This document shows positions 8,357 through 59,950 of a stretch of DNA of 64,000 nt, one piece after another. Each line of letters opens with the position of its first letter. Position 1 is the first letter of the stretch. The stretch covers positions 33,569 through 97,568 of the forward strand of contig PNMQ01000004.1 of NCBI GenBank assembly GCA_013823725.1, written 5' to 3'. Position numbers and translations under genes: made by a program. Origin of the DNA: Candidatus Pelagibacter sp. GTDB taxonomy: Bacteria > Pseudomonadota > Alphaproteobacteria > Paracaedibacterales > CAIOTO01. The notes under the pieces are model-generated. The model was not told the DNA's origin, ran no database searches, and was given only the letters and a program-made list of their open reading frames with translations.

Positions 8357-8908
8357 TTATTTATTTTTTTTAGAACTACAGCATGAAAACAAGCGCTTAA
8401 AAAAGCCTTTATTTTCCTTAACAAGACCATTAATATCACTAACAATTTCAACCACTTCATGCGCTACAGCTTTAGAATCATTGGCTTGCAAAAGATCAGC
8501 TGTATTTCCTATTAAACCACCAATGTGCTGCAGGTTTGAACTTTGATTTTGATCCCCAAGTTGCGCAGCAACCTCTCCGATAACATCTAACGCTGCAGAC
8601 GCCTTTTGGACATCCTTTATGTCCGATGTATTGTCAACAAAATTGTCAACTTTATCCAAAGCATCAGGCAGTAGCTGCTCAGCAACACCGATAACAACAT
8701 CAACCTTTCCCTTAACATTTTCTGAATTTTTAAAATCATCTTTAGCTTTTACTAGCGTAACTGTAGTACCAATAATCATTTCGACAGTCTTATTGGTAGA
8801 CGCACCTACGGGTTGACTATCAGAAACTTCATCACTAATACTCGTAGAACGAGCTGTAGTAGCATTTAATACGGCACAACTAAACATCAAAAATAGAATT
8901 TTATTCAT
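8357..8908 (-). CDS. Exported hypothetical protein (helical, Asp/Val-rich)
   Basis: Signal peptide MNKILFLMFSCAVLNATTA. There is no recognisable domain. The tail is C-terminal FSCCSSKKNK. Confidence 0.5.
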   Translation of the reverse strand: MNKILFLMFSCAVLNATTARSTSISDEVSDSQPVGASTNKTVEMIIGTTVTLVKAKDDFKNSENVKGKVDVVIGVAEQLLPDALDKVDNFVDNTSDIKDVQKASAALDVIGEVAAQLGDQNQSSNLQHIGGLIGNTADLLQANDSKAVAHEVVEIVSDINGLVKENKGFFKRLFSCCSSKKNK

Positions 8909-12223: not shown

Positions 12224-13033
12224 GTGATAAGAAAAATAATATCTTCTTTAATATGTTTACATTTAACGCTATGCTGCAAAATCTTTGCAATTGAAGAACA
12301 TCAGCTAAACACTTTTTTTGAAGCTTGCCAGTTGCTTGAAACATCTGCTTTCCTTCATGTTCGTCCTGTTAGAAATCGTTACTATGATAGCGAAACTATC
12401 GGAACCAAAATAAACAAACAAATACAAGAACTTTCTTTACCCGAAAATGTAACACCACATGAAAACTATCAGAATCTTCAAGAATACTTTTTAAATGCGC
12501 TGGATTGTAAAGACGGACAAAATATAAAAAGAATATTACACGCCATAACATCTCGCAATATATCTACAAAAGAATTCCTCTCGTTAAACAATATCCAACC
12601 TTATTTGAATATGCTTTCCTTATACTTCACTGAATTAACGTCTTGGGCCTTATCTGAACAAGACATAAACGGATATTATGCAAGCCTTCAATTACATATT
12701 AATTCTAAAGATAAAAAATCAGCACACGCACATTCATTTGAAATTTTTTTACAGCAAAGAATTTTAAATAAAAAATTTATTCGTCGCTGTGGAAAAATTA
12801 TCGATGACTTTGTTGCCAATCGTACTTTTGATAAAGAACATATCTCTAACTTACTCAAAATATTAAATAAATATGATCCAGAAGCATTAGGAGAGGAACC
12901 ACAATTCACTACAAATAAAGAAAACCCCACCATTGATTTAGAAAATGAGATCAATGCAAAACAGTATTTTTTTTATAAAATAAAATTTAAATTAATAAAA
13001 ATTCTAGATACCCTTGAAAACGGGGATGCATAA
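12224..13033 (+). CDS. Exported hypothetical protein
   Basis: GTG start and a hydrophobic N-terminus (IISSLICLHLTLCCKIFA). I recognise no domain. Coding status rests only on ORF length and the lack of a competing ORF. Confidence 0.45.
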   Translation: MIRKIISSLICLHLTLCCKIFAIEEHQLNTFFEACQLLETSAFLHVRPVRNRYYDSETIGTKINKQIQELSLPENVTPHENYQNLQEYFLNALDCKDGQNIKRILHAITSRNISTKEFLSLNNIQPYLNMLSLYFTELTSWALSEQDINGYYASLQLHINSKDKKSAHAHSFEIFLQQRILNKKFIRRCGKIIDDFVANRTFDKEHISNLLKILNKYDPEALGEEPQFTTNKENPTIDLENEINAKQYFFYKIKFKLIKILDTLENGDA

Positions 13034-13062
13034 ATATTTCCACAAAATAAAAGAAATTATTT

Positions 13063-13980
13063 TTAAGAATTTGTATGGTTAATCCAATAACTATCAAATC
13101 CAGCAAGCACAGAGCCTCTTACAATTCTGGATAGCCATCCATGATAAAGCGTATGTAAAGAACCAGATCTATAAAGTTTCTGAATAAATAAAAAAGTCGT
13201 TACAGGGCTGCGTAAACTTCTTATGTTTTCTGCATGTATTTGAGCTCTTAAAGTTAATAGTGGAAAAGTAACTGACGCCTGTATTGCTGAAATTATGGGC
13301 CCCATAATGCAAGATTCAGAAAAAGTAAGATTATCTTTCTTGTTAAACAGTATCTGTTTTAAAATCCTGTTAGAGATCAAAAAAACATTCAAATGCAAAA
13401 ACGAAGATTGAAAAGTTAATAATCCACCTTGAAAAAACCACGATCTATGCCTGAAACAATCTGAAAAATCGCATCTATTATTTTGGATGAATGGAATGTC
13501 AAGCTTGCGAATATAAGCCACTTTTATACGCTCAAATGGATTAGCAAAAACGATATCAGTAGATGAAATCATAGCAGAAATAAATAATTGAGAAACCACA
13601 GGATTCTTCAAATAACTATTTTCTGGTAATTTTTTTGTCTGTAACATTAAATATTTATATAAAAAATAGGTAGACTGTGCACGTAGTGTTAATTCAACAA
13701 GATGTGTTTTCAAAATAGGCACTAAAATAGGTCGATGTACTGTTTTAATAGCCTTAAAAAGGCCACTATAGGAGTCACCCGTTACTTGTCTACCTATAGT
13801 CAGAAAATCAAACGGAAAAGATATAATAGGGCGTGTAACCGCAGGAACAGTGCTTTCTTTTACAGCTTTATAAAATAACTGAGACTGAGATATAACATTA
13901 CTTCCGTCTTTATCTACAGCGAAACCATAAGAATAAAGACAGAAAAAAATTAAATAAAATTTATATCGCATTTTGCACAA
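13063..13980 (-). CDS. Mitochondrial-carrier-family-like membrane protein (eukaryote-like)
   Basis: 305 aa. Three ~100-aa segments each contain a degenerate P-x-[DE]-x-x-[KR] carrier motif: PFDFLTIGRQ, PFERIKVAY and PLLTLRAQ. Each is followed by an aromatic/Gly segment and an even-numbered helix; the third, LYHGWLSRIVRGSVLAGFDSYW, is close to the canonical carrier consensus. Confidence 0.45.
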   Translation of the reverse strand: MCKMRYKFYLIFFCLYSYGFAVDKDGSNVISQSQLFYKAVKESTVPAVTRPIISFPFDFLTIGRQVTGDSYSGLFKAIKTVHRPILVPILKTHLVELTLRAQSTYFLYKYLMLQTKKLPENSYLKNPVVSQLFISAMISSTDIVFANPFERIKVAYIRKLDIPFIQNNRCDFSDCFRHRSWFFQGGLLTFQSSFLHLNVFLISNRILKQILFNKKDNLTFSESCIMGPIISAIQASVTFPLLTLRAQIHAENIRSLRSPVTTFLFIQKLYRSGSLHTLYHGWLSRIVRGSVLAGFDSYWINHTNS

Positions 13981-14064
13981 TAAAGAAAAGAATGCCTCAT
14001 TTAAGGGTAGATAAGCTACTTTTCTAATTCAATAAAATTCAATCCTGGCACACTACATAAAAAT

Positions 14065-17000
14065 CTAGATATCTTCAGAGATCAAACTTTGAATTTCATA
14101 TTCAATTTGATTATTAAATTTGAATTTCTTTTTAAAAACGAATTTAACTTTTCCCACATTTTCAATTTTGGTGGTTACCGTTAATGATGATTGTCCTTTG
14201 GGGACATCTGAAAGAATATTTTTCAAGCGATCAAATAATACAATTTCTGGTTGAAGATGAATATGCACATCCTTCACTTTGATTTTTGATTCTAAATGTT
14301 CACAAGCAATAACTGTAAATTTTACGTTATCATCTTCTGATTTAACACGTGCTTGTACAAAGATGCAGGTTCCTTGTTTCAAAAGGTCTTTAGACTTTAA
14401 ATAAAGATCTGAAAAAAAAACAAGGTCGATAACTCCTGTTTTATCTGCTATTTGAATGAAAGCAAATGCATCACCTTTTTTAGATTTCTTTTCCTGGACT
14501 GCAGCAATTGTTCCTGCGAAATTCACATAAGGTTTATATTCGCCATCGGTACAAATATAATCATACACTTGACCAATTGGGGCTACATCCAACGATGATA
14601 AATGATTCAAATAAACATCCATAGGATGAAGAGACATATAAAAACCAATGGAATCAAGTTCCTTTTGCAAACTATCTTGAACTCCCCAATCTTTACCTAT
14701 AGCTAAGGGCAGATTAATCGTCTGATTTTCTTTCGTCTGAAACAACGTTTTCTGTTTACTTTTTTGCGCTTTATATATCATTTGTGATTGCTGTATAAAA
14801 ACTTCGACATTTTCATAAAAAGCTTTCCGATTGATAATTTTATGTTCTATTAACATTAATTCATCAAATGCTCCTGATGCTATTAAACTTTCAAGTTGAC
14901 GTTTATTAATGGTTTTACTGTCTAATCTTAATGCAAAATCTGTTATGTTTTTAAAAGGTCCATTTTGATTCCTCTCGATTAACATTTGCTCAACAGGCGC
15001 AATTCCTACATTTTTTAATGCAGAAAGACCATACCTAACACTCCATTCACCATCCTTTGATTGTTCACACGTAAAATTAACATGGGAAGCATTAATATCA
15101 GGCTTCAACAGATTATGACCATACTGTTCCATATCATTTTTGAAAATATTAAGTTTATCCGTATTCTGTTTATCTAAAGTCATGGAAGCACAATAAAATT
15201 CAATTGGGTAATTAGCCTTAAGGTAGGCTGTTTGATACGCAATTAAAGCATAAGGGGCAGAGTGCGATTTGTTAAAACCATAGCCTGCGAATTTAGCCAT
15301 TTGATCAAAAATAAGGGATGCTGTTTTTTCTTCAATACCTCTTTCTGTGGCACCTTTAACAAACAAATCTCTTTGATCATCCATTTCTTTTTTAATTTTT
15401 TTACCCATGGCTCTGCGCAAAAGGTCTGCTGCACCCAAACTATATCCTGCAAGAACCTGTGCAATTTGCATAACTTGTTCTTGATAAACCATAACCCCAT
15501 AGGTTGTATTTAAAATGGGTTCTAATTTAGGATGCGCATATACAACAGGTTCATGTCCGTGTTTACACGCAAGATATCTAGGAATATCGTCCATAGGTCC
15601 CGGACGGTACAACGCAACAAGGGCTATTAAGTCCTCAAACAAATCAGGCTGAAGTTTTTTCAAAACATCTTTCATGCCAGCACTTTCAAGCTGGAATACG
15701 CCAACCACATTCAAATCACAAAGCAATTTAAAAGTTTTAGAATCGTTCAAAGGTATTTTGTGAATTTCAACAAGTATATTGTGGTTTTGTTTAATCAGTC
15801 TGCAACATTCTTGAATAACAGTTAGAGTCTTAAGACCCAAAAAATCGAACTTAACCAACCCCATAGCTTCAACATATTTCATGCTGAACTGAGTTACAGA
15901 AAGGTCAGAACTTTCGTCTTTAAAAAGAGGTATAACGTTGTTGAGTGGTTGATCCGAAATAACAACCCCAGCAGCATGGGTGGATGCATGACGGTATAAT
16001 CCTTCAAGTTTTTTTCCCATATCAAACAGTTTTACCAACTGGTGATCTTGCTGAATCATTTCACGTAAACTTGCACTTTCATCTAAAGCCTGAGAAAGTG
16101 TTACAGGTTGCGCCGGATTATTCGGAATCATTTTACACAAACGATCAACTTGACTGTAAGGTAATTGCATAACTCTGCCTACGTCACGCAATATCATACG
16201 TGCTTGGAACTTTCCAAATGTAACGATGTGCGCCACACATTCTTGCCCATATCGTGACCTTACGTATTGAATAACTTCATCACGTCTGTCTTGACAAAAA
16301 TCCACATCAAAGTCAGGCATGGAAACACGTTCAGGATTCAAAAATCGTTCAAAAATGAGACTAAAACGAATAGGGTCTATATCGGTAATAGTCAAAGACC
16401 AAGCTACTAACGATCCAGCACCCGAACCACGCCCTGGCCCCACAGCGATATCTTTTGATTTTGCCCATTTAATAAAATCAGCAACGATCAAAAAATAACC
16501 AGGGAAACCCATATGATTGATAACGCCAAGCTCATAATCAAGACGATCGTAATATATTTTTGATATAGCATCGTCTGGTTCATTAATAAAAATTTCTTCT
16601 TGCAAACGTTTTTCAAGACCGGCATAAGATTGATTTTTCAATTCGTCATATTCAGAAACTTCTTCTGATTGAATGAATTTTGGAAGAACTGGAGCCCTAC
16701 CCTTTAAAACAAAATGGCACCTTTTAGCAATTTGGACTGTATTGTCTAAAGCTTCAGGTAAATCTAAAAACAAACTTTCCATTTCTGAAACATTTTTAAA
16801 ATAGTGTTCTTTTGTTTCATGACGTCTTTTTTGTTCATCGATATAAGTACTATCCGCAATACAAAGCAGTGCATCATGCGCATAATAATCATTTTGTGTT
16901 TTAAAAAAAACATTCTGTGTCGCCACAATAGGAATGGAATAATCAGCTGCAAGTTTTAAAAATAAGGGTTCGGTATTTTTTTCATCTTCTAAATGGTGTC

Positions 17001-17544
17001 TTTGAATTTCCAAATAAAATCGATCGACAAAAATTTCTTTAAAAGTCTGCGTAAGATTTTTCATTACTGAAAAAACAAAGGGCATGTCTTGATTCAAATT
17101 CAAGGCCAAATATCCTAAAGGTCCTAAATGTCCACCAGACAAACAAATCAATCCCTGTTGGTATTGCCTTAAATCTTCCAACGTAATATAGGGAACTTCA
17201 ATCGTATCTTCTTTAAAATGTGATAGTGTACTTAATTTTATAAGATTCTCATAACCTAATTGAGACTGCGCCAATAAAACAATATCAGCCTTAAAACTGT
17301 GTGTAGTTTCATTGGGCAATTCAATATCTAATTTTAAACTGATTTGAGAAGCAATAATGGGTTGAATGCCTTTTTGCAGTGCATAACCCGAAAATTCTAA
17401 GGCACCATATAAATTATTAGTATCAGCAACAGATATTGCTGGCATACTATAATCAATGCATAAGTCAATAATGTCTGGGATCTTGATAGCGCCTTCACTA
17501 AGTGAATAAGCACTATGCGTTCTGAGGTGAACAAAAGTGGAGAT
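14065..17544 (-). CDS. dnaE: DNA polymerase III alpha subunit
   Basis: Carries the GPGRGSGAGSLVAWSLTITDIDP and FERFLNPERVSMPDFDVDF blocks. The ATG-delimited ORF ends at 17445. The same frame stays open upstream and encodes the conserved PHP N-terminus FVHLRTHSAYSLSEGAIKIPDIIDL (17535 downward). That stretch has no ATG, GTG or TTG. The 5' end given here (ATC at 17544) is provisional; see the finding. Confidence 0.9.
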   Translation of the reverse strand: MSTFVHLRTHSAYSLSEGAIKIPDIIDLCIDYSMPAISVADTNNLYGALEFSGYALQKGIQPIIASQISLKLDIELPNETTHSFKADIVLLAQSQLGYENLIKLSTLSHFKEDTIEVPYITLEDLRQYQQGLICLSGGHLGPLGYLALNLNQDMPFVFSVMKNLTQTFKEIFVDRFYLEIQRHHLEDEKNTEPLFLKLAADYSIPIVATQNVFFKTQNDYYAHDALLCIADSTYIDEQKRRHETKEHYFKNVSEMESLFLDLPEALDNTVQIAKRCHFVLKGRAPVLPKFIQSEEVSEYDELKNQSYAGLEKRLQEEIFINEPDDAISKIYYDRLDYELGVINHMGFPGYFLIVADFIKWAKSKDIAVGPGRGSGAGSLVAWSLTITDIDPIRFSLIFERFLNPERVSMPDFDVDFCQDRRDEVIQYVRSRYGQECVAHIVTFGKFQARMILRDVGRVMQLPYSQVDRLCKMIPNNPAQPVTLSQALDESASLREMIQQDHQLVKLFDMGKKLEGLYRHASTHAAGVVISDQPLNNVIPLFKDESSDLSVTQFSMKYVEAMGLVKFDFLGLKTLTVIQECCRLIKQNHNILVEIHKIPLNDSKTFKLLCDLNVVGVFQLESAGMKDVLKKLQPDLFEDLIALVALYRPGPMDDIPRYLACKHGHEPVVYAHPKLEPILNTTYGVMVYQEQVMQIAQVLAGYSLGAADLLRRAMGKKIKKEMDDQRDLFVKGATERGIEEKTASLIFDQMAKFAGYGFNKSHSAPYALIAYQTAYLKANYPIEFYCASMTLDKQNTDKLNIFKNDMEQYGHNLLKPDINASHVNFTCEQSKDGEWSVRYGLSALKNVGIAPVEQMLIERNQNGPFKNITDFALRLDSKTINKRQLESLIASGAFDELMLIEHKIINRKAFYENVEVFIQQSQMIYKAQKSKQKTLFQTKENQTINLPLAIGKDWGVQDSLQKELDSIGFYMSLHPMDVYLNHLSSLDVAPIGQVYDYICTDGEYKPYVNFAGTIAAVQEKKSKKGDAFAFIQIADKTGVIDLVFFSDLYLKSKDLLKQGTCIFVQARVKSEDDNVKFTVIACEHLESKIKVKDVHIHLQPEIVLFDRLKNILSDVPKGQSSLTVTTKIENVGKVKFVFKKKFKFNNQIEYEIQSLISEDI

Positions 17545-28005: not shown

Positions 28006-28860
28006 ATGAGTTGGCTAGCTGATTTTGTTAAACCAAAAATACAAGCTTTAATGAAAAAAAGCTCTCTTCCAGAGAATTTGTGGACAAAATGTTCTAAATG
28101 TGAACACTTACTCTTCACCAAAGAATTAGAAGATAACCTTAATGTGTGCCATTATTGCGGCAACCACATGAGGATTGATATCGCTTTACGCTTACGATCG
28201 CTTTACGACAACGCTCTATATGAAGAATTCCCCATTTCTAAAGTTGTTCAAGATCCCTTAAAATTCAAAGATAGCAAAAAATATACTGATCGATTAAAAG
28301 AAGCAAAAAGCAAAACCCACAGAGAAGATAGCGTTATCGCAACTTTCGGACACATTAACAATGTACCCGCCGTTATAGCAGGATTTGATTTCAACTTCAT
28401 GGGAGGATCCCTAGGCATTGCAGCAGGAGAAGCCCTAGTTATTGCATCACAAAAAGCAATAGAAAAAAAATGTGGACTTATTATCATTTCAGCATCAGGT
28501 GGAGCACGCATGCAAGAAGGTGTTTTATCCCTCATGCAAATGCCAAGATCGATTATTGCTGTTGAAAAAGTCAAAGAAGCAGGTCTACCCTATATTTCCG
28601 TACTAACAGACCCTACCACAGGCGGTGTTTTAGCCTCATTTTCCATGTTAGGCGACATAGCTATAGCCGAACCCAATAGCCTAATTGGCTTTACCGGAGC
28701 AAGAGTTATAGAGGAGACAATCAGACAAAAGCTTCCAGAAGGGTTTCAAAGAGCAGAATATCTTCTTGATCACGGGATGATTGATATCATAACGCACCGA
28801 TCAGAAATGAAAAAAATATTATCCCAATTATTACAACACTGCTACAATGGGATCCGCTAA
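28006..28860 (+). CDS. accD: Acetyl-CoA carboxylase carboxyltransferase beta subunit
   Basis: N-terminal Zn ribbon CSKCEHLLF...CHYCGNH and the carboxyltransferase core FMGGSLG...SGGARMQEG. Confidence 0.9.
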   Translation: MSWLADFVKPKIQALMKKSSLPENLWTKCSKCEHLLFTKELEDNLNVCHYCGNHMRIDIALRLRSLYDNALYEEFPISKVVQDPLKFKDSKKYTDRLKEAKSKTHREDSVIATFGHINNVPAVIAGFDFNFMGGSLGIAAGEALVIASQKAIEKKCGLIIISASGGARMQEGVLSLMQMPRSIIAVEKVKEAGLPYISVLTDPTTGGVLASFSMLGDIAIAEPNSLIGFTGARVIEETIRQKLPEGFQRAEYLLDHGMIDIITHRSEMKKILSQLLQHCYNGIR

Positions 28861-29615
28861 ATTTTCAAAAAATACCTGATTTGGGATTTAAAAAAATCAC
28901 CATAATAAGTTAGAATTGAGGAAGCAATCATACTCAATACAACAAATCCAATCCATAGTTGCAGCGGCATTGTAATGAAAAACAACTGAACTTGAGGGAT
29001 GATGCGCCCCAAAAAACCCAGCGTCAACTGACTGATAAGAAATACAATCAGCAAAGGCGCTACTAATTGCAAACTAATCTGGAAAGTTTGAGCAACAATC
29101 TGAATTAAGCTCTTTGAGTATTCTCCAAAAGGAATAGAACTCATCATAGGAAACAAGACATATGTGCTAACAAAAGCATTCAGAATCAGATGATGAAGAT
29201 CCAAGCTTAAAAAAATAACAACACCAAATACGTTGAACACATTAGACAACAGCGTGCTTTCTGGCAAATTTGGGTTAAAAGAATTTGCACTAGACAATCC
29301 CATAAAATCGCTCACAAAGTGACCAACGTACTCCAAGATCATAGCTATCAACCTACTCATAGCTCCAATAAAAGAACCTATAATAAGCTCCTTAATCATT
29401 TCTTTCATAAGCAAAATAAAATGCAAATCACTGCTTGACTTTACAGATATTAAAGGCAAAATGAGAAAAGAAAAACCAAGGCTAATAAAAAGTCGAATTC
29501 TGCCAGGGATTTCTTTCTGAGACAAAAAAGGCACTAAGGAAAAAACACCCAGAACGCGACAAAAGACTAAAAAGAAATCAAAAAAGTCTTTAAGTATAAA
29601 ATGCTGATCCATCAT
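28857..29615 (-). CDS. fliR: Flagellar (type III) export apparatus protein FliR
   Basis: 252 aa polytopic membrane protein. The N-terminus FFLVFCRVLGVFSLVPFLSQKEIPGRIRL matches the FliR/SctT pattern. It sits directly after fliQ. Confidence 0.7.
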   Translation of the reverse strand: MMDQHFILKDFFDFFLVFCRVLGVFSLVPFLSQKEIPGRIRLFISLGFSFLILPLISVKSSSDLHFILLMKEMIKELIIGSFIGAMSRLIAMILEYVGHFVSDFMGLSSANSFNPNLPESTLLSNVFNVFGVVIFLSLDLHHLILNAFVSTYVLFPMMSSIPFGEYSKSLIQIVAQTFQISLQLVAPLLIVFLISQLTLGFLGRIIPQVQLFFITMPLQLWIGFVVLSMIASSILTYYGDFFKSQIRYFLKI

Positions 29616-34279: not shown

Positions 34280-34833
34280 AACCAGTAGAATACTATATAA
34301 ATAGTTGCTGCAGCCATAACTGCAGCGATAATATCATCTAACATAATGGATAATGACTGAAATCTTTCTTGGCTACTCATCCAAGTTTCAACTGCATGGA
34401 TCGGCCAAGGTTTCAAAATATCGTAAATTCGAAACAGAATAAATGATGCAAAAATTAATACCGTAGACTGAACATGTCCCAGCACTGATAAACAAATCGC
34501 TTTACCAAAAAAAACAAGGCTTACCGTAAGTAAAAAACCCGAGACCTCATCGATTACGATCCAAGAAGGATCATATTTTTTTTTATCACTTCTGGCGAGT
34601 AACGATTGCCTATCCTCTATTCTGAATTTTTCCAAGATATTGAAACAAAGCCACCAACCCCAAAAAAATGTAATAATTGATGCTGCCAACACTATCAAAT
34701 CAAAACGTAATGTAAATTTGAACGATGTCCAGTAAAGAATATATAACAGCGGCATTACACCTAATGTTCCCCACGTTCCAGGCATTTTAGGCAAATAACC
34801 AAGACCAAACCAAGATGCAAAAAATGGTGTCAT
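34276..34833 (-). CDS. pgpA: Phosphatidylglycerophosphatase A
   Basis: FGLGYLPKMPGTWGTL and the IVIDEVSG motif in a ~185-aa membrane protein. Confidence 0.7.
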   Translation of the reverse strand: MTPFFASWFGLGYLPKMPGTWGTLGVMPLLYILYWTSFKFTLRFDLIVLAASIITFFWGWWLCFNILEKFRIEDRQSLLARSDKKKYDPSWIVIDEVSGFLLTVSLVFFGKAICLSVLGHVQSTVLIFASFILFRIYDILKPWPIHAVETWMSSQERFQSLSIMLDDIIAAVMAAATIYIVFYWF

Positions 34834-36152
34834 TACACTATTCCAAAAGCTTTGAATATTTCATAGGTTAAAAAAATCACACTTAAGAATAGCAAAAAAT
34901 AAATGTATGCATTTGGAAAAAACATTCTATATTGAATCACTATAGAAGGGTTTTTTCGCGCTTTAAGACACATAAGACAAGGAATAATTCCAAAAAGAAG
35001 AATAGCAAATGTCCCGCCAGCAATACCCAAAGCATTTAAAAATATCCCAGGAAAAAAACATGTGACAATAACACACACTGCAAAATAGAAAAATGAAATA
35101 ATTTTTCGTGAAAATTTTAATTTTGGCGCCTTTTTAATATCGCTTACAAAATCAACCACACTAACCCCTTGACCAAAAATGGATGTAATAATCGCAGCAA
35201 AAGAAAAGACCTGAGCCCAAAAGCTTAAGTTATGCATAACCACATTATTTTTTGTTCTAATAACGTGGGTTAGAATATCCGTAATAATTTGTCCTTTTTG
35301 AAAGTATGTAGCAAATTCAGCTTTTGAATGTGCAGGGATAACACCTAAGACACAATTGTTCCAAATCAAATAAACGATAAATGGGATAAATGCACCGATA
35401 ACAATTGATTGAACTGTATTGCTTGAAAAAGCGTCTTTATCTTGTGATCTAAAATACTTTAAAACAGATGGAATCATATTATGAAAACCAAACGCAATAA
35501 CCATAAATGGCACCATCAACGGAAAAGTCCCCCAATCGGATCGCGCTAAATTTTGAGAATCAAATGCTGGATACGAAATTCCTATAAGAATCATAAAGGC
35601 AACAACTAAAACAGCAACACCTAAACGATTCCACAAATCAATACGTTCGTAAATTTGACAGATTATAGAATGGCTGAATATACCCAACATAATGGGCCCC
35701 ATGTAATTTGAATAGATTGGATTTAAAATGAAAGAACTCAGATCGATTTTAAATACTAAAAAAAAGTTGTGAATAAAATTTAAAAATAAATCCCCGCCTT
35801 TGCTAAGGTATGCAACCATAACGCAAGAAAACAAACCTAGAAAACAAAATATAACCCAGTTTTTAGCTGTTTTCCCCAACAGATTTTCTACCGTATCTAT
35901 GAGATTAATTTGATAATTGCTTGTACTATTTTTCGTAGCATTTATAGTTGAAAGGCATTCAAATAAAATAAGCCCCGTAGATAGCATGTATACCCAAGAA
36001 ACCACATAAGCTGCCAAAGAAACCCACAGACCTCCTTCTCCTGTTACTGTTGGCAATGCCAGCATTCCTGCCCCAATAGTTCCACCAGCAATTAAAAAAA
36101 TAGATCCCCAAAAAGAACCCGTCAAGGATTTCTGTTTTAATTTTTGTTGCAT
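34833..36152 (-). CDS. Aromatic amino acid permease (HAAAP family, TyrP/Mtr/TnaB-like)
   Basis: GSIFLIAGGTIGAGMLALP is the hallmark N-terminus of TyrP/Mtr/TnaB. About 11 TM helices. Confidence 0.75.
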   Translation of the reverse strand: MQQKLKQKSLTGSFWGSIFLIAGGTIGAGMLALPTVTGEGGLWVSLAAYVVSWVYMLSTGLILFECLSTINATKNSTSNYQINLIDTVENLLGKTAKNWVIFCFLGLFSCVMVAYLSKGGDLFLNFIHNFFLVFKIDLSSFILNPIYSNYMGPIMLGIFSHSIICQIYERIDLWNRLGVAVLVVAFMILIGISYPAFDSQNLARSDWGTFPLMVPFMVIAFGFHNMIPSVLKYFRSQDKDAFSSNTVQSIVIGAFIPFIVYLIWNNCVLGVIPAHSKAEFATYFQKGQIITDILTHVIRTKNNVVMHNLSFWAQVFSFAAIITSIFGQGVSVVDFVSDIKKAPKLKFSRKIISFFYFAVCVIVTCFFPGIFLNALGIAGGTFAILLFGIIPCLMCLKARKNPSIVIQYRMFFPNAYIYFLLFLSVIFLTYEIFKAFGIV

Positions 36153-36177: not shown

Positions 36178-38127
36178 TTATGGCTGAGACACTTTGCATG
36201 CGCCACCAATAGATTTGCAAAATGATTTAGCTGCATTCAGGTTAGAAAACTTCAAATGAACCAAAAGTCGATAAACTTTTTGACCAGAGTTTAATACTGT
36301 TTGTCTGATTTCTATTTCCTGCGTGAATAATTTTTGATATTTTTTTTGCAATCTTTTCTTTTCAGATGATGCTTTTTTAGATGACCCCAACGTTCCTAAT
36401 TGAATCAAAAAGGGCAACTTTTTCTGCACATTTTTTTCAATTTTTTTCTGAGTTGAAACAGATAAATTTTGTTCCTCATTTTGTCTAAGATTCTGAATAG
36501 CTTCATCTACATTTGGAGCAGGTTCAGGTTGGTACGTTTGAGCCAATGGAGCTGGACTATTTTGCAAAATAGAAGGTTGTCCTTCTTGGGTAAGAACATT
36601 TTGCTGCGCATAATCTGAAGAACTTTGAGGTGCAACAGGAATAGGATCTTCTATTTCATCTTCGTCTTCAAAATGAAGGGGATCTATTGTTTCTTCATTG
36701 CTTTCAAGTACGTTTTCGCCCTCTAATGGTAAGGATCCATGAGGCATCAGACGATCGTAGATAACATTATCTTTGTGAATATCTGTATATTGCACCTTAT
36801 CATTTGAAATCTTATAAGGGCCTTTTGCGGCTTTTATTATTGGTATTCCTGAAGAATCTGAAGGTCTTAAATACCAATACACACCTGCACCAAAAAGACT
36901 AGAACATAAAAAACCTAATCCTATCCATAATATTTTTCGAATTAAAGTCTTTGATATAAATGGATTAGATAATTTTTCGTTTAACGCATGTTGTTCTCTT
37001 TTGCCACCTACATCTTTATTGGCATTATCGTGTTGTAAACTTTGTGATGTGAAATCACGCGAAGGCATTGCGCGTTCTTGGGTCTCGTAATCATATTGAT
37101 CGTTACTCTGCTGTGATTTTGGCAACAAATTCATACTGCTACGATGTGGCATGAAGTATTCTGGAACATATTTATCTTCACGAAACAGTCTATTATTTAT
37201 CCTCGTTTCATTATAGTGAGGGTCAGATAATGGCGATTCACGATAATGCAAAGCATTTCGATGAATTTCGTCCATCCGTCTCGACTGATTTAAATACGGA
37301 TCTACTGGTGGTGGGTTGTAATATTGGTGAGGTCCCAAAACAGGTGCATCTTCGTAAGCATTATAATTTTTCGAAGATCCGTAATAATTATGATCCGAAA
37401 AAGGTTGAGTGGAATTTTCATAATGGTTGTGCTGAGAAATATATTCAGCATGACTATTTCTAGGCTGGGCATCACTATAGGTTGGTTCTACATAATATCT
37501 TTCATGCGAAATGTGTTCTATTGGTTGAGCAGGGACCCGATCATATTGAGCAAGACGTTCATTTAAACCGATAGATGTATCATGCGGCTCGTGAATAGGA
37601 CTTCGCCTATGCTGAGATACTGAAGGTTGAGGTGGATAATCATATCTTTGTCGTTGTGTCGATTGCTCTGCTCTTGGTACAGATGTTTGCTCGTACCTTA
37701 AGTTATGTGCACTAACTTGCTGTTTTGAATTCTCATCATACCTATCTTCATATTGCTCTTCAAAAGACGAATTTGATGAGCCTCGAAAAGAAGGAATAGG
37801 ATTGGATTTCTTAGAATTAATTTCCATAGAAGCAGAAGGAAAATCATCTAGCTCTCTTTGCGTAGATGGGGGGACCTTTAGCTGTTGCTTATCATAATTT
37901 GACTTTAAATATGGAGTTTGCTGAGGTTCATTCTGGAAGCTATCTCTACCACCCCTCAAACCTTGAGTATGCGATTTTTGATTTCTCAAAAATTGATCAT
38001 CTAACAAGGAATGATGATTTTGATTTTCCATATCTTCATGGTCATCACTACCATCAAAATAGGACTTTCTTTTTTTCTTATTAAACAAAAAATCTAAACC
38101 AGACATTATATTTGTATTATGAATCAA
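36178..38127 (-). CDS. SPOR-domain protein with a very long low-complexity N-terminal region
   Basis: C-terminal SPOR pattern FLIQLGTLGSSKKASSEKKRL...QKVYRLLVHLKFSNLNAAKSFCKSIGGACKV. A single TM helix (ILWIGLGFLCSSLFGAGVYWYL). About 390 aa of Q/Y/N/P/H/S-rich sequence precede it. Confidence 0.7.
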   Translation of the reverse strand: MIHNTNIMSGLDFLFNKKKRKSYFDGSDDHEDMENQNHHSLLDDQFLRNQKSHTQGLRGGRDSFQNEPQQTPYLKSNYDKQQLKVPPSTQRELDDFPSASMEINSKKSNPIPSFRGSSNSSFEEQYEDRYDENSKQQVSAHNLRYEQTSVPRAEQSTQRQRYDYPPQPSVSQHRRSPIHEPHDTSIGLNERLAQYDRVPAQPIEHISHERYYVEPTYSDAQPRNSHAEYISQHNHYENSTQPFSDHNYYGSSKNYNAYEDAPVLGPHQYYNPPPVDPYLNQSRRMDEIHRNALHYRESPLSDPHYNETRINNRLFREDKYVPEYFMPHRSSMNLLPKSQQSNDQYDYETQERAMPSRDFTSQSLQHDNANKDVGGKREQHALNEKLSNPFISKTLIRKILWIGLGFLCSSLFGAGVYWYLRPSDSSGIPIIKAAKGPYKISNDKVQYTDIHKDNVIYDRLMPHGSLPLEGENVLESNEETIDPLHFEDEDEIEDPIPVAPQSSSDYAQQNVLTQEGQPSILQNSPAPLAQTYQPEPAPNVDEAIQNLRQNEEQNLSVSTQKKIEKNVQKKLPFLIQLGTLGSSKKASSEKKRLQKKYQKLFTQEIEIRQTVLNSGQKVYRLLVHLKFSNLNAAKSFCKSIGGACKVSQP

Positions 38128-38265: not shown

Positions 38266-39177
38266 CTATTTTTGAGTTTGAAAAAAGTCGTCGCTCATAA
38301 GATTATCAACGATGTCTTGCTTCAGAGCATTTTGAGGTAGCTGAGGGCCATACAATTTATTGCCGTCAATACTCATTTTTGGTGATGGAAAATCATTTGA
38401 TTTATCATCTTTTTTCACATACATGTAAATTTTCAAAATTATTTTATTAATATGATCAAATGTTCTTAAAACAACACGAATACGCTGACCCACAAGATCT
38501 TGAAAAGAACATGCTTCAAAAATATTGGCAATCTTAGTCTTCAACTCTTTCTGATCAACAGCTTCAATTTCACCGCACATTTTTTCCAGTGACTCCGCAC
38601 TATTCAAAATGCGATGAGTAGATTGTTCAGCAAACTGAATAACCTCTTCAAGTTCTTTAAAAGAAAAATTCAGCAGTTTAGATTCAACTTGAGGGTTATC
38701 TTCTTGAAGTAATTCAGATTTTAATTTCTTTAAAATATTTATCACTTTACAAATTTGGTTTATTTTTTCAGAACCCATATCTACTGATAAAGGATGTCCT
38801 TCATGCGAAGAATATTCAGCGAAAATTTGATTAAGCAGTAACTCAACATCATTTAAAATTTGACTGACTTTTTTTATTCTTTGCCCTGTTAAATCCTGAA
38901 ATATACAGTTCTCATAAATCTTAGTAATTGCTTCTTGTACTTTTGAAAATGAATTATTCAGTTTTGACTTTTGAAAAAATTGATTAATCTCTTCAGCATT
39001 ATCAAGAATTCGATTCGTGGCATCTACCATACTTTGAACAATAACGTCTAATTGTTCCTGAGTTTCAGAAAATATAAATAAATTATTCCGAAAACATCCC
39101 AGATCTTGTAAATCTGAACGCGCACAATCTAAATATTTTGAAAATTCTTCTAACTGGAGTATCGCTGCATGATCCAT
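38266..39177 (-). CDS. CheZ-like CheY-P phosphatase with internally duplicated catalytic hairpin
   Basis: Two copies of the CheZ active-site motif: FQDLTGQRI (aa 93-101, nt 38875-38901) and FQDLVGQRI (aa 225-233, nt 38479-38505). Each is preceded by a similar helix (ATNRILDNAEEI vs STHRILNSAESL). The C-terminal QDIVDNLMSDDFF resembles the CheY-binding tail of CheZ. It sits directly after cheY. Confidence 0.6.
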   Translation of the reverse strand: MDHAAILQLEEFSKYLDCARSDLQDLGCFRNNLFIFSETQEQLDVIVQSMVDATNRILDNAEEINQFFQKSKLNNSFSKVQEAITKIYENCIFQDLTGQRIKKVSQILNDVELLLNQIFAEYSSHEGHPLSVDMGSEKINQICKVINILKKLKSELLQEDNPQVESKLLNFSFKELEEVIQFAEQSTHRILNSAESLEKMCGEIEAVDQKELKTKIANIFEACSFQDLVGQRIRVVLRTFDHINKIILKIYMYVKKDDKSNDFPSPKMSIDGNKLYGPQLPQNALKQDIVDNLMSDDFFQTQK

Positions 39178-39180
39178 TTA

Positions 39181-39570
39181 TTAAATTTCCCCTACCACGC
39201 TCACAAGTTTCAATCGTAAAGTTTCAGCATTAAAAGGTTTTACAATATAATTTGTTACGCCAGCTTGTTTCGCAGCTATAACATTTTCTGTTTTACTTTC
39301 GGCTGTAACCATAATAAAGGGAATGTGTTTCAGGTTTGGATTCGCTCTCACTGCTTTTAACAGCTCCATCCCGTTCATAGGCTCCATATTCCAATCAGAA
39401 ATTATTAAGTCATATTTATTATGCTTTAATAGCTCTAGAGCTTCACCACCATCCAAAGCTTCATCTATATTTTCAAATTTTAGCTGCCTTAAAAGATTAC
39501 CAATAATACGAAGCATTGTTTTATAATCATCAACTATTAATACTCTAAATTTTTTAAGATCTATAGACAT
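39181..39570 (-). CDS. cheY: Chemotaxis response regulator CheY
   Basis: Single receiver domain of 129 aa. LIVDDYKTM (acidic pocket), LIISDWNMEPMNG (phospho-Asp), MVTAES and the YIVKPF Lys. Confidence 0.85.
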   Translation of the reverse strand: MSIDLKKFRVLIVDDYKTMLRIIGNLLRQLKFENIDEALDGGEALELLKHNKYDLIISDWNMEPMNGMELLKAVRANPNLKHIPFIMVTAESKTENVIAAKQAGVTNYIVKPFNAETLRLKLVSVVGEI

Positions 39571-39656: not shown

Positions 39657-41078
39657 TTACCAAAGGCCAAGAACTTTCCACCATAGTCCGCCACCACATA
39701 TCCAAATGATAAGATTAATAATACTGACTATAAATCCAATTTTCCACCAATCACCTAATTTAACGTAATTTGCACCAAAAACAATAGCACCCGCAGTTGT
39801 TCCATAATGCGTCATACTTGAAAATAAACTACTAAAAAATGCAAGCAAGAGTGCTGCAACTAAAGGAGGAGCTCCTATAGAAATACTAACAGCTAAAAAT
39901 GCAGCATACATTGAAGATACATGTGCTGTGTTGCTTGCAAAAAAGTAGTGACTATAAAAATAACATAAGGATAAAAATAGGAATCCCTTTTGCCAAGGCC
40001 AATCGACTACAAATCTTGAAATATTTTGGCTAAACCAAGATATAAAACCAAACTTATCAAGGTAGGTCGACAATGTAACAAGAACCGCAAGCCAGATGAA
40101 TGTATTCCATGCTTCCTTTTCATTCATCACATCTTTCCAATCAATGATTTTCAAAACGATTGTTAAGACTAAACCTAATAAGGCTGCTGTTGAAGCACCA
40201 ACGCCCGTTTGTTTTGCAAAAATCCAAAAAAACAGAATTAGACAAAAAATACCAATCATCGTTTTTTCTTTAGAACTTAATGGTCCTAATTTTTCTAATT
40301 GATCACGGGAAAATTCTTTTGAATTTTTAATAACTTTTAATTCAGGTGGATAAATCCAATATAAAACCAAAGGAATAACCAACAAGCTAATCAACCCAGG
40401 AACACTAGCAGCAACAAACCAAGAAACCCAAGTAATTTCAACATTTTGTTTTGCCGCTAAGCTTTGCGCCATTGGGTTTGCAGCCATCGCAGTTAAAAAC
40501 ATTGCACTGGATATTAAATTACTTTGAAAAGTGACTTGATACAAAAAGGATCCTAATTTTCTTTCCGTACCATGTTCAGGGGAACTACCCAAAGTTTCAG
40601 AAATAGACTGGATAATTGGAAGCATCACACCACCGGTACGCGCGGAATTACTAGGCATAAAAGGTGCAATCAACACTTCTGTAATAGCTATTCCGTATCC
40701 CAAACCAAGAGTGCTTCGCCCCAAAAGACCCACAAAGATATAAGCTAATCTTGTTCCTAACTGAGTTTTAATAAACCCACGGGCGATAAAAAAAACAAGA
40801 ACAACCAGCCAAATTACTTGATTCGAAAACCCTGCCATTCCTTCTTCAAAGGTTAAAACATTTGTTAGTACAGTTACCAAAAGACCTAATAACGCAATAA
40901 AAGGCATAGGGTATGGCTTAAGTACAATTGCTGTAATCGTAGCCACAAAAATAGAAAATAAGTGCCAAGCTTTAGGCTCTAAACCTACCGGAATAGGCAT
41001 CAGATAGATAGATAGACCAATAATAATCGAGAAAAATATTTTTAAATTTGTTGCATTCATTTTTATCTTATTCTCCAA
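39657..41078 (-). CDS. DASS-family (SLC13-like) anion/dicarboxylate transporter
   Basis: 473 aa polytopic with the hairpin-tip motif SNSARTGG. The overall pattern resembles 2-oxoglutarate/malate translocators and CitT-like carriers. Confidence 0.7.
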   Translation of the reverse strand: MENKIKMNATNLKIFFSIIIGLSIYLMPIPVGLEPKAWHLFSIFVATITAIVLKPYPMPFIALLGLLVTVLTNVLTFEEGMAGFSNQVIWLVVLVFFIARGFIKTQLGTRLAYIFVGLLGRSTLGLGYGIAITEVLIAPFMPSNSARTGGVMLPIIQSISETLGSSPEHGTERKLGSFLYQVTFQSNLISSAMFLTAMAANPMAQSLAAKQNVEITWVSWFVAASVPGLISLLVIPLVLYWIYPPELKVIKNSKEFSRDQLEKLGPLSSKEKTMIGIFCLILFFWIFAKQTGVGASTAALLGLVLTIVLKIIDWKDVMNEKEAWNTFIWLAVLVTLSTYLDKFGFISWFSQNISRFVVDWPWQKGFLFLSLCYFYSHYFFASNTAHVSSMYAAFLAVSISIGAPPLVAALLLAFFSSLFSSMTHYGTTAGAIVFGANYVKLGDWWKIGFIVSIINLIIWICGGGLWWKVLGLW

Positions 41079-41568
41079 TTTACAAAAAACACAAAATCTT
41101 AATTTTATAAAACTAAATATTTATTATCTTTGATAGTTTCCCACATAATAGCAAAAATTTCAAAAAAATGCTTTCTTTTAAAAATCTGTTAAAATTAATG
41201 ATGCTGAACAAACACCTCACATTGTTATTAAAAAAATTTAAAATATAGTATCCACATATAAGTTAGCAAGATGAACTAAATCACCTTATTCCTCTGAAAT
41301 GAGATCATCACTCCTATGTTTTTTCATCAGTCTAAATCTACTATTTAATATACACTGAAGGGAAAGTGTAGGAGTTTTTTTGGTTACAAAGCACAATAAA
41401 TTCGTGCTGACATCATATATGCATCTCTTGCGTTTATTTTCATAGTCAAAAAAAATGCCACAAAAAAATTATTATGGCTAAAAAACATGGCACCGTAATA
41501 TAACATGGCTTTCCCAAAACGATTTTGATATATTTTATATGATATATATAAAAAAAGGATACTGTAAC

Positions 41569-43866
41569 ATGTCTAATAATGTTTTTGATGAATCAGTCAT
41601 CTACCATAGAAGAAAACCATACGGAAAACTTTCGGTTGTTCCAACGAAACCTCTAGATGACCGTGAAGATCTTGCTTTAGCTTATTCTCCAGGTGTTGCT
41701 GAACCTTGCAGGCTTATTCAAAATAACCCTCTAGAATCATTAGAATTAACATCAAGAGGAAACCTCGTCGCTGTTATTTCAAACGGGACAGCAGTTTTAG
41801 GATTAGGAAACATTGGTGCTTTAGCTTCAAAACCGGTGATGGAAGGCAAAGCTGCTTTATTTAAAAAATTTGGTAACATTGATTCTTTCGATATTGAAAT
41901 TGATGAAACAGACCCTGACAAACTTGTTGAAATTATTGCTTCACTTGAACCTACATTTGGAGGTATCAACCTTGAAGACATTAAAGCTCCTGAATGTTTT
42001 TATGTTGAACAAAAATTAAAAGAACGCATGAAAATTCCTGTGTTCCACGATGATCAACATGGAACAGCTGTTATCGTTGCGGCTGCAACACAAAATGCTT
42101 TGGAGCTTTTGGGAAAAAACATTCAAGATGTTAAACTTGTCGCATCTGGTGCTGGCGCTGGTGCAATGGCTTGTTTAAACTTGCTTATGCATATAGGTAT
42201 CAAAAGAGAAAACATTACAGTTTGTGATAGTAAAGGTGCAATTCATTCCGGTCGTGAAGATATAAAGGACCCTTATAAAAAAGCGTTCATGATAGAAACA
42301 CCCAATAGAACTTTGAAAGATGCCTTAAGAGGTGCAGACATGTTCTTAGGTCTATCTGTTGCAAATGTTTTTGACGAAGAAATGATTGCTTCACTAGCCC
42401 CTAACCCGCTAATTTTAGCTCTAGCAAATCCAAATCCAGAAGTAACTCCTGAACAAATTCTCAAAGTAAGATCTGATGCCATTATCGCAACAGGACGATC
42501 TGACTACCCCAACCAAGTCAACAACGTTCTATGTTTTCCTTACTTGTTCAGAGGTGCTCTAGATGTAGGTGCGTCATGCATTAACGAAGAAATGAAAATT
42601 GCTGCCGTTGATGCTATTGCAAGACTTGCCAAAGCAGAAACAACAGATGTTGTAGCCAACGCTTACGGTGGTGAAGTTCACCGTTTTGGCAGAGACTATA
42701 TTATTCCAAAACCATTTGACCGTCGTCTCTACATGGAAATTGCTGCAGCTGTGGCAAGAGCTGCTATGGACACAGGCGTAGCAACAAAACCAATTCAAGA
42801 TTTTGCAACGTATCTTCATGATCTTGAAAGTTATGTGTACAGATCAACTTCTTTCATGAGACCTATTTTTGAAATTGCTAAATCTGAAAAAGCAAAAGGT
42901 ACACGTATCTGTTTTGCTGAAGGTGAAGACAACCGTGTTTTACAAGCTGCTCAAGGTCTGGCAGATCGTGGCATAGGTCATTCTGTTTTAATTGGCCGTC
43001 CAGAAGTGATTAAATGGAGAATAGACCATTTAGGGTTACGAATAGTTGAAGATAAGGATTTCACCATTGTAGACCCGAACAGCGATAGCCGTTTCCAAAA
43101 ATATTGGCAAACTTATCATTCTCTTATGGAACGAAAAGGTGTTAGCCCAGACGATGCAAAAATTCATGTAAGAAGCAAAAACTCTTTAATTGCTGCTTTG
43201 GCTGTACGTTTGGGAGATGCTGACGTTTCTATTGCGGGATTAACAGGACGCTATATAGAGCACTTTAGGACTTTCAGGCAAATTCTGGGGCTTGATAAAG
43301 ATGCCGACATATGTGCTGCCGTAACACCGCTTATCTTGCCGTCAGGACCACTTTTCCTTTGTGACCCATATGTCAACGAAGATCCAACCGCGGATGAACT
43401 CGTAGAAATCACAGAATTAGCGATGAAGCAAGTTCGTCAATTTGGATTAACACCAAAAGTTGCACTTGTTTCCCATTCTAATTTTGGAACATCGTCGCTT
43501 CCTTCTGCAAAGAAATTAAGAGAAGTTAGAGATATTTTAGCTTATCAATATCCGGACTTAGAAATTGATGGAGAAATGCATGCTCATTTAGCCTTAGATG
43601 AAGACGCACGTTCTAAATTTTTCCCCAATTCCAATTTAAAAGGAATGGCTAATTTACTTATTTTCCCCAATATTGAATCTGCTAATATTTCATATAATTT
43701 AATAAAAACTTTAACAGAATGTCCAACCCTCGATCCTATCCTCATGGGACTTAATGGAGTAGCACACGTACTTAGCCAAACAGCTTCTGTAAGAACCATA
43801 TTAAACATGTCAACATTAGCTGTCGCAGAATTTCAAGGACGCAAAGCTTTATCCTCATCAGAATAA
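41569..43866 (+). CDS. maeB: NADP-dependent malic enzyme (MaeB type, with C-terminal phosphotransacetylase-like domain)
   Basis: YSPGVAEPC, the FHDDQHGTA block and the Rossmann loop [11 protein letters not shown] ~330-aa PTA-like C-terminal half follows. AAGGA lies upstream of the ATG at 41569; the ORF track begins at 41539. Confidence 0.9.
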
Positions 43867-59343: not shown

Positions 59344-59374
59344 GCATCAACATTTTCTGAGTTCAGTAAATTCT

Positions 59375-59881: not shown

Positions 59882-59950
59882 AAAAATCCCTTATTCTTTT
59901 TTTTAATATTTAATATCAAATACTTTAAACAAAGTTAATTGTTAAAAGTA

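Follow-up and report, generated by a model that had tools for sequence, protein, structure and literature searches.

A divergent mitochondrial carrier homologue with a putative Sec-type signal segment, encoded between dnaE and folD on a bacterial contig

Proteins of the mitochondrial carrier family (MCF, also SLC25) are treated as a hallmark of eukaryotes, and a canonical carrier has no cleavable signal, its N-terminal tail having to be translocated. The present work deals with a gene lying on a 64-kb stretch of bacterial DNA, the whole of which is called the window hereafter. Its product, the window protein, is on the strength of profile comparisons a true but divergent MCF/SLC25 homologue across all three carrier repeats. 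In addition, it bears a putative Sec-type signal peptide or uncleaved anchor, which canonical carriers lack. Bacterial MCF genes are already known; the recurrence of a Sec-type signal, the existence of a coherent clade and the implied use in the bacterium's own membrane appear to be undescribed.

Like the eukaryotic members (AAC, UCP1/2 and the oxoglutarate carrier, OGC), the window protein displays three repeats of about 95 residues, one kink proline in each odd-numbered helix and a predicted six-helix barrel. It also shares with them the PxDxx., PxExxK and Px.xxR signatures, the glutamine brace of helix 1 (H1), the glycine of the [YWF][KR]G element in repeats 2 and 3, and the RG pair of H6. 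In contrast to these nuclear-encoded proteins of the mitochondrial inner membrane, it is encoded between dnaE and folD on a bacterial chromosome, and it has a signal-like segment, an outer face that is not positive and repeats 1 and 2 that lie under Pfam detection. Moreover, the matrix bridge between H5 and H1 is lost on both partners, and nothing is left of the cytoplasmic network, whose positions read YKxxM, NRxxK and INxxN.

Among bacteria, the sole MCF member characterised so far is LncP (Lpg2905) of Legionella pneumophila, likewise an MCF-fold protein encoded by a protist-dwelling bacterium and presumably eukaryote-derived. LncP is a nucleotide carrier translocated by the Dot/Icm type IV secretion system (T4SS), which avoids SecYEG/YidC and is assembled in host mitochondria; in the available part of its description, a short C-terminal extension is the sole difference noted from eukaryotic members and no N-terminal signal peptide is mentioned (PMC3252375). 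By that description the window protein is set apart, since it has a putative signal peptide and far more degenerate motifs and is encoded in an alphaproteobacterium; where an LncP-type protein would combine T4SS delivery, bypass of Sec/YidC and a signal-free N-terminus, a conserved signal-like segment is found here. The original prediction, made from the sequence alone, rightly cited LncP as a characterised bacterial MCF member, although it is not the only bacterial case. Lpg1137, also from Legionella, is a very divergent bacterial SLC25 homologue (SLC25_like, PF18405; PMC5621508), and it is a Dot/Icm effector as well. Membership of the Lpg1137 family was considered for the window protein and rejected, given that no match to PF18405 was obtained even at E <= 10 while the Mito_carr threshold was passed.

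Three further groups invite comparison. The carriers of giant viruses (Yasminevirus, Pithovirus, Moumouvirus) resemble the window protein in fold (template-modelling score, TM, 0.55-0.63; probability 1.00) and are found in non-eukaryotic genomes sharing amoebal hosts, but have only 11-16% sequence identity to it. The fungal peroxisomal PMP47/Ant1 carriers, which exemplify MCF members in a non-mitochondrial membrane, are among the best eukaryotic profile matches and have an acid-less 'TYP[LY]xTL[KR]' signature; this likeness is weak (E ~1e-7 to 1e-5), mostly confined to one repeat and labelled after one cluster name, and may reflect a parallel loss of the acidic residue. Finally, the NTT/Tlc nucleotide transporters of Rickettsiales, Chlamydiae and Caedibacter are alike in function only, in that they import host nucleotides across the inner membrane of symbionts, as cited in a 2025 review of the Holosporales (PMC11909080); their fold, with 12 transmembrane segments, is unrelated.

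A literature search on mitochondrial carriers in Paracaedibacter, Holospora, Caedibacter, Odyssella, Midichloria, Jidaibacter and chlamydial genera returned no description of these proteins, and the words 'carrier' and 'SLC25' are absent from the 2025 review (PMC11909080). Members of the present clade may well be among the bacterial Mito_carr entries listed earlier, because Holosporales were then often filed under Rickettsiales (PMC11909080). According to a 2026 preprint, SLC25 has no known prokaryotic homologues apart from a proposed remote similarity to CysZ/YihY (bioRxiv 10.64898/2026.03.31.715626).

Homology, repeats and predicted fold

The original prediction rested on a minus-strand open reading frame (ORF) of 305 residues at 13063..13980, counted from a TTG at 13980 in the ORF list. 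This frame does exist, but translation likely starts at the ATG at 13971, three codons 3' of the TTG, which places the gene at 13063..13971 (minus strand) and yields a 302-residue product beginning MRYKFYL; an identical 302-residue entry (P0001) is present in a public protein collection. Residue numbers below are those of the 302-residue form unless the 305-residue ORF is named. The gene and its three repeats, with the E-value of each repeat against its canonical counterpart, are as follows.

13063..13971, minus strand: carrier gene, 302 codons plus stop; the in-frame TTG at 13980 would lengthen it by 3 residues
13618..13887, minus strand: carrier repeat 1 (residues 29-118), with H1, a short matrix helix and H2; model helices 29-64, 68-77 and 80-113; E 6.9e-6
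13339..13617, minus strand: carrier repeat 2 (residues 119-211), with H3, the matrix loop and H4; helices 124-154, 169-180 and 183-209; E 3.8e-7 over 88 columns
13066..13338, minus strand: carrier repeat 3 (residues 212-302), with H5, a matrix helix and H6; E 2.7e-21; the sole repeat seen directly by Pfam

Sequence, profile, fold and genomic context all back the prediction's headline of a eukaryote-type MCF/SLC25-like protein in a bacterial genome. The Pfam family Mito_carr (PF00153) matches with 38 bits (cut-off 22.3; E 1.4e-9), on a single stretch at 217-294 of the 305-residue ORF, that is repeat 3; repeats 1 and 2 fall below detection, contrary to the three Mito_carr matches that had been expected. 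An NCBIfam search with the carrier protein gave no match, nor did a PDB search with its single sequence. Profiles reach further. With one built from the five closest relatives, an exhaustive search of 1.84 billion cluster representatives, on which the size of the family rests, recovered 17 proteins below 1e-10, corresponding to its own family. The same search gave about 100 weaker matches, mainly ordinary carriers aligned on two or three stretches, several being collinear over query residues ~45-300 on targets that carry three Mito_carr stretches each. Against the PDB, a wider family profile finds UCP2 (5.6e-11) and yeast AAC3 (1.4e-9), followed by yeast AAC2, Thermothelomyces AAC, bovine AAC1, UCP1, OGC and GGC1. 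The narrow family profile still matches yeast AAC2 (1.4e-4) and pairs 'YNGWSSRVVRGS' with 'FFKGAWSNVLRGM' of bovine AAC1.

Regarding the threefold repeat, direct internal similarity is weak, the self-comparison of the repeats with hhalign giving E-values of 4.8e-4, 0.018 and 0.088; all three alignments are nevertheless in register. When each repeat was compared by hhalign with canonical repeat profiles, using the repeats of a 15-member subfamily, the cognate repeat was the best match in every case, while reversed-sequence controls gave E-values of 0.03-0.34 over at most 20 columns. The expectation of three repeats thus holds at the level of profiles and only faintly within the sequence itself.

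The three signatures quoted in the original prediction are indeed present.

13786..13815, minus strand: signature 1, PFDFLTIGRQ (residues 53-62); P, D and Q62 kept, the K/R at +5 replaced by T58 in alignments with eukaryotic carriers
13510..13539, minus strand: signature 2, PFERIKVAYI (residues 145-154); canonical PxExxK
13234..13263, minus strand: signature 3, PLLTLRAQIH (residues 237-246); P and R kept, L239 in place of the acidic residue

In a MAFFT alignment of 100 sequences, P53, P145 and P237 share single columns with the prolines of the canonical Px[DE]xx[KR] signatures, these columns holding 96, 94 and 100 prolines, respectively; the columns of Q62, G182 and G278 hold 98, 98 and 97 identical residues. 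P145, E147, R148 and K150 are invariant within the close family.

The six-helix barrel proposed in the original prediction is also what structure prediction returns. The AlphaFold2 model, computed from a 19-row alignment including distant relatives and six eukaryotic carriers, has a mean predicted local distance difference test score (pLDDT) of 83.3 and a predicted template-modelling score (pTM) of 0.78. It is laid out as H1-h12-H2 / H3-h34-H4 / H5-h56-H6 with a separate N-terminal helix, and the second helices quoted earlier for each third correspond to its H2, H4 and H6. When the model was searched with Foldseek against the PDB, the top 16 chains were all carriers (UCP1 with TM 0.64/0.67, AAC, OGC; overall TM 0.5-0.67), and carrier-fold subunits of Tetrahymena complex IV were among the best structural matches. 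The top 14 matches in a viral library were giant-virus carriers, and below the carriers TM dropped under 0.3 in both libraries, every match above TM 0.45 being a carrier. The product is thus predicted to adopt the six-helix carrier barrel.

The N-terminal segment and the membrane of residence

Upstream of the barrel, a hydrophobic segment at residues 1-19, which the original prediction had not mentioned, has the layout of a Sec-type signal.

13915..13971, minus strand: putative Sec-type signal peptide or signal anchor (residues 1-19), read as MRYK / FYLIFFCLYSYGF / GFA before VDKD, from hydropathy and n-h-c layout

Written as MRYK-FYLIFFCLYSYGFA before VDKD, the segment has small residues at -1 and -3 and is followed by an acidic early mature region. 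In the AlphaFold2 model, residues 2-20 form a separate helix of low pLDDT. No in-frame ATG, GTG or TTG lies between Met1 and helix 1, so that translation of helix 1 entails translation of the segment. Similar segments occur in nearly all full-length relatives, for instance MIRKILFLVAIGMQFLISHG before QEID, MFQKIICSFFILILFSITCIA before KTDDD, MLKILLCFFALHAQA before HPEESD and MKFLIVLLSVANLAPS before QEQ; most of the 25 relatives examined have the n-h-c layout, and the first 12 mature residues have a net charge of zero or below in all 25.

The distribution of this segment follows phylogeny. A hydrophobic 11-mer upstream of helix 1 is found in 25 of 100 full-length sequences, 24 of which belong to one clade of 35, while outside this clade 1 of 65 sequences reaches the threshold, the borderline P0071. 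The clade is recovered with a bootstrap of 100/100, and the 15-member subclade holding the window protein with 98, in an unrooted neighbour-joining (NJ) tree built on Poisson distances from 100 very divergent sequences (the 35 of the clade and 65 other carriers). Eleven clade members have no segment: five begin at or near helix 1 or correspond to short, alternative gene calls whose cluster mates are longer (P0004, P0127, P0131, P0144, P0006), five look complete (P0025, P0058, P0069, P0077, P0087), and the last is P0094. The five complete ones keep canonical 'HP[LF][DE]xxKT[RK]xQ' signatures and could be effector-type counterparts of the signal-bearing proteins. As a separate observation, P0012, P0125, P0126 and P0127, from contigs of 1-4 kb, make up a subgroup of ~250 residues with extreme N/K/I richness that begins at helix 1 and has no signal segment; they are either truncated gene calls or a real signal-less variant.

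Besides, the outer-face segments of the signal-bearing proteins have a mean net charge of -0.1, compared to +4.5 in the others, whereas the matrix-face charge is similar in the two groups (+12.9 and +11.2, respectively). Such a stronger positive-inside bias goes in the direction expected if these proteins had adapted to insertion in a bacterial membrane.

The original prediction had hesitated between a host-targeted carrier and one used in the bacterial membrane, and the evidence now favours the second. We lean, by a modest degree, towards a carrier of eukaryotic descent, redirected to the inner membrane of the bacterium itself and oriented as in a mitochondrion, where it would move a host-derived solute; the membrane assignment is favoured because of the conserved Sec-type signal peptide, the outer face depleted in positive charge and the housekeeping context of the gene. 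According to this model, an ancestor acquired from a eukaryote or a giant virus would have gained a Sec-type signal peptide, adding such a signal being the simplest route to make a carrier insertable in a bacterium, and the protein would enter the cytoplasmic membrane of the bacterium itself by way of Sec/YidC. Either the signal peptide or, if it stays uncleaved, an N-in anchor would make helix 1 start on the periplasmic side. The H2-H3 and H4-H5 loops, like the two termini, would then be periplasmic, and the three 'matrix' loops would lie in the bacterial cytoplasm. If the periplasm is equated with the intermembrane space, this would be the orientation of a mitochondrial inner-membrane carrier. 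The carrier would there move a small host-derived metabolite across the inner membrane.

The same data bear on the idea of an LncP-like effector, exported and inserted into a host membrane, be it the mitochondrial inner membrane or that of another organelle, so as to alter host metabolite fluxes. This is how LncP itself acts (PMC3252375), and a role as infection factors has been hypothesised for the Mito_carr proteins of bacteria (PMC5621508). In line with it, the family to which the named relatives belong consists of obligate protist symbionts, several relatives have short K/R-rich C-terminal tails, and the carrier evolves faster than its neighbours. However, with six hydrophobic helices behind a Sec-type signal peptide, the protein should end up in the inner membrane of the bacterium, whereas LncP is described as avoiding SecYEG/YidC (PMC3252375). 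Carriers imported into mitochondria typically have a positive outer face, which has been lost here, and synteny among housekeeping genes is conserved. Moreover, the inspected loci have type VI secretion system (T6SS) genes (tssK/L/M) and a gene resembling the F component of type II secretion systems (T2SS), but no T4SS; to our knowledge, neither T6SS nor T2SS is a route for polytopic membrane proteins. An effector role, the main rival to the own-membrane reading, is regarded as unlikely.

If the own-membrane reading is true, a symbiont would have borrowed the host's organelle-type transporter for its own inner membrane, which is the reverse of the LncP traffic and would make it metabolically 'organelle-like'. 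It would also represent a natural experiment in re-routing a TOM/TIM22-dependent carrier via Sec/YidC, and would add a new element to the exploitation of host metabolites by Holosporales. With two matrix bridges and no cytoplasmic gate, such a carrier would be suited to bacterial expression for structural and mechanistic work.

Gate networks, binding site and selection

In carriers, the acidic residue of each odd-numbered helix pairs with the basic residue on the next one to form the matrix network. Because of this rule, the charged pairs D55-K150 and E147-R242 of the window protein correspond to intact bridges, while the H5-H1 partners are replaced by L239 and T58; going by the alignment, this leaves two of the three matrix bridges and neither partner of the H5-H1 one. 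Distant signal-peptide-bearing relatives are also without an acidic residue in the H5 signature (PLMTIR, PLVTLM, PLLMLR), so that this loss is old. At the positions of the cytoplasmic network ([FY][DE]xx[KR]), the window protein has Y105-K-x-x-M, N201-R-x-x-K205 and I297-N-x-x-N, hence no acidic/basic pair at the aligned positions of H2, H4 and H6. The partial loss of salt-bridge residues noticed in the original prediction is thereby confirmed and assigned to precise positions. Work by Robinson, Overy and Kunji in 2008 is said to have found weak cytoplasmic networks in some accepted carriers too. Going by the Robinson-Kunji symmetry argument, a protein with two matrix bridges and no cytoplasmic network would not be a strict exchanger, and net, uniport-like import may be proposed instead.

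In terms of binding site, R285-G286 of H6 ('SRIVRGS') aligns with 'SNVLRGM' of bovine AAC1 and 'ANILRGV' of yeast AAC2, the AAC arginine at this position being what we take to be contact point III. On H4, Ser-Ser stands where AAC has Gly-Ile, presumably contact point II; this comes from aligning the two sequences by hand and should be taken as a lead only.

These features raise the question of a carrier fold with a changed, non-carrier role in the envelope, such as a channel, a lipid- or protein-handling factor or a structural subunit. The absent cytoplasmic network, the matrix bridge lost on both sides, the atypical Ser-Ser (with the reserve just given) and the divergence of repeats 1 and 2 beyond Pfam detection are consistent with it, as are the Tetrahymena complex IV subunits found among the best structural matches. 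MTCH2, a carrier-fold protein reported to be an insertase (bioRxiv 10.1101/2022.09.15.508165), provides a precedent, as do these carrier-like subunits. Nevertheless, the family as a whole conserves matrix gate and cavity residues that a working gate and binding site would require, namely those of two matrix bridges and the Q62 brace together with G182, G278, R285 and the three kink prolines, which argues against a changed role. The ratio of nonsynonymous to synonymous substitutions (dN/dS) points the same way, being 0.19 and 0.14 for the carrier when compared with two related loci, L001 and L007, with an intact reading frame in all orthologues. For comparison, dnaE, pfk and the penicillin-binding protein gene have values of 0.03-0.06, bioY and folD of 0.09-0.15, and a secreted hypothetical of 0.22-0.25. 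The carrier gene is thus under purifying selection while evolving fairly fast. Overall, a changed role seems distinctly unlikely.

Several points weigh against a working carrier in the bacterial inner membrane. The missing cytoplasmic network together with the lost matrix bridge could mean that transport is gone. The predicted fold is not fully independent of homology, as eukaryotic carriers were part of the AlphaFold2 alignment, and five close relatives alone gave a poor model (pLDDT 45); the homology that warrants the eukaryotic rows was, for its part, established independently of the model. The signal peptide call is a hand-made heuristic of hydropathy and layout, and the h-region of the window protein is moderately hydrophobic, its best 11-mer scoring 1.75, slightly under the first threshold. 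The difference in outer-face charge (Mann-Whitney p = 3.7e-7) counts related sequences as independent, so that the p-value overstates the case. The carrier has 74% identity to its L001 counterpart, compared to 84-97% for the housekeeping neighbours, and evolves faster than they do, as host-interaction genes often do. Besides, the intracellular lifestyle of the window organism is something we infer, with an indirect taxonomy, the nearest genome being labelled 'Candidatus Pelagibacter'. Lastly, a nucleotide or nucleotide-like cofactor as substrate is a weak guess, made because AAC, UCP and the fungal PMP47-type peroxisomal carriers are the best-scoring relatives and because the H6 arginine is conserved.

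Genomic setting, distribution and origin

The gene stands 93 bases downstream of dnaE (14065..17445, same strand) and tail-to-tail with a gene for a 269-residue hypothetical protein (12224..13033), beyond which come folD and bioY. A scan for promoters and terminators in the spacer between dnaE and the carrier gene found none, and the 64-kb window holds no rRNA genes. The closest relative (74% identity) lies on L001, a contig of a metagenome-assembled genome (MAG) from a study of Polish wastewater and rivers, in the order dnaE-carrier-hypothetical-folD-bioY-rpsF. This order is shared by L001/L003-5 and L007, and the 61% relative is placed likewise; the position between dnaE and folD is syntenic in three related genomes. 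The identical carrier protein was found in a further sequencing run, and the carrier is single-copy per locus. As for the 269-residue hypothetical (plus strand), its N-terminus is signal-peptide-like, its identity is 40% (L001) and 32% (L007) compared to 70-97% for neighbouring genes, and it has no match in Pfam or NCBIfam; it looks like a secreted, fast-evolving protein.

Because MCF genes are overwhelmingly eukaryotic, one might have suspected an artefact, namely a contaminating eukaryotic sequence in the assembly or a pseudogene undergoing decay. The GC content of the carrier region is 0.30, inside the 0.28-0.39 spanned by the window, and the dnaE and folD flanks recur on independent assemblies from four samples; with intact frames and a dN/dS well below 1, this explanation was rejected, its probability being practically nil.

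More remote members are found in other settings. On three long metagenome contigs, those at 31-37% identity are flanked by ntrY/ntrX/trkA on one side and by hsp33-gidB-parA-parB-tssK-tssL-tssM on the other; on L009, L010 and L012 (~12300..16900), the T6SS genes tssK-tssL-tssM come about 3.4 kb downstream of the carrier, past hsp33, gidB, parA and parB. Another member adjoins murI, alr and flagellar-type export genes, and yet another, from a MAG labelled Alphaproteobacteria, has a response regulator, gshB and an MFS transporter as neighbours. All clade contigs inspected are bacterial, and mostly alphaproteobacterial in appearance from ntrYX synteny and record titles. For two clade members, the NCBI name is that of a hypothetical protein from a 'Candidatus Paracaedibacteraceae bacterium' MAG, this family being one of the Holosporales. 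A pattern scan, which detects close relatives only, matched 2 of 185,579 species genomes.

The described Paracaedibacteraceae all live free in the cytoplasm of protists (PMC11909080). With the exception of Holospora, nearly every sequenced genome of the Holosporineae is reported to keep the T6SS, and wastewater is one of the habitats from which related sequences have been recovered (PMC11909080; PMC11144129). The window organism is probably a low-GC, Holosporales-like, host-associated alphaproteobacterium. In this context, L001 (CAYPYB010000001.1) is titled 'uncultured Candidatus Pelagibacter sp.', although the window, which it matches closely (85-97% identity in housekeeping genes), has FliR and CheY/CheZ and the named relatives of the shared carrier are Paracaedibacteraceae; this label is probably wrong.

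The clade also bears on the still-open question of the origin of SLC25 (bioRxiv 10.64898/2026.03.31.715626). It could be imagined that it descends from an alphaproteobacterial source of SLC25 rather than from a eukaryotic transfer, in which case SLC25 would gain a direct prokaryotic relative with native Sec-dependent biogenesis. The bacterial, mostly alphaproteobacterial-looking contigs with two Paracaedibacteraceae members, the split from all 65 sampled canonical carriers (NJ bootstrap 100) and a membrane-targeting segment such as a native bacterial protein would be expected to have are compatible with such a descent. The clade nevertheless amounts to some 35 clusters among 1.84 billion representatives, every named member coming from a host-associated lineage, and the few hits of the pattern scan, limited as it is to close relatives, agree with this scarcity. 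Patchy presence in protist symbionts is the classical signature of host-to-symbiont transfer, and an unrooted NJ tree of very divergent sequences is exposed to long-branch attraction. Ancestral descent is thus deemed highly improbable, and acquisition from a eukaryote or a giant virus followed by retargeting is preferred.

The remainder of the window encodes many secreted-looking proteins without annotation. One of them, a 183-residue hypothetical at 8357..8908 (minus strand), has 61% (L001) and 46% (L007) identity, no Pfam match and a dN/dS of 0.22-0.25, the highest of the compared genes. Another product, of 649 residues (36178..38127, minus strand), is very rich in Q/N/P/Y/S, has one hydrophobic segment near residue 400 and gives no Pfam match at 1e-5. 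At 56535..61573 (minus strand), a T2SS-F gene (GspF/PilC-like; 58165..59343) stands amid ORFs of 552, 168 and 540 residues without Pfam match, possibly a divergent pilus or secretion locus. Tandem DIT1_PvcA paralogues (pyoverdine/dityrosine biosynthesis) with hydrophobic N-termini, at 61851..62855 and 62949..63941 (both plus strand), would not be expected of a small low-GC genome. A FliR-type export protein, CheZ and CheY (28857..29615 and 38266..39570, minus strand) show that genes for flagella and chemotaxis have been retained. Finally, a Trp/Tyr permease (34833..36152, minus strand), a dicarboxylate-type transporter of the DASS group (Na_sulph_symp; 39657..41078, minus strand) and an adjacent malic enzyme-PTA fusion (MaeB; 41539..43866, plus strand) suggest reliance on imported amino acids and dicarboxylates.

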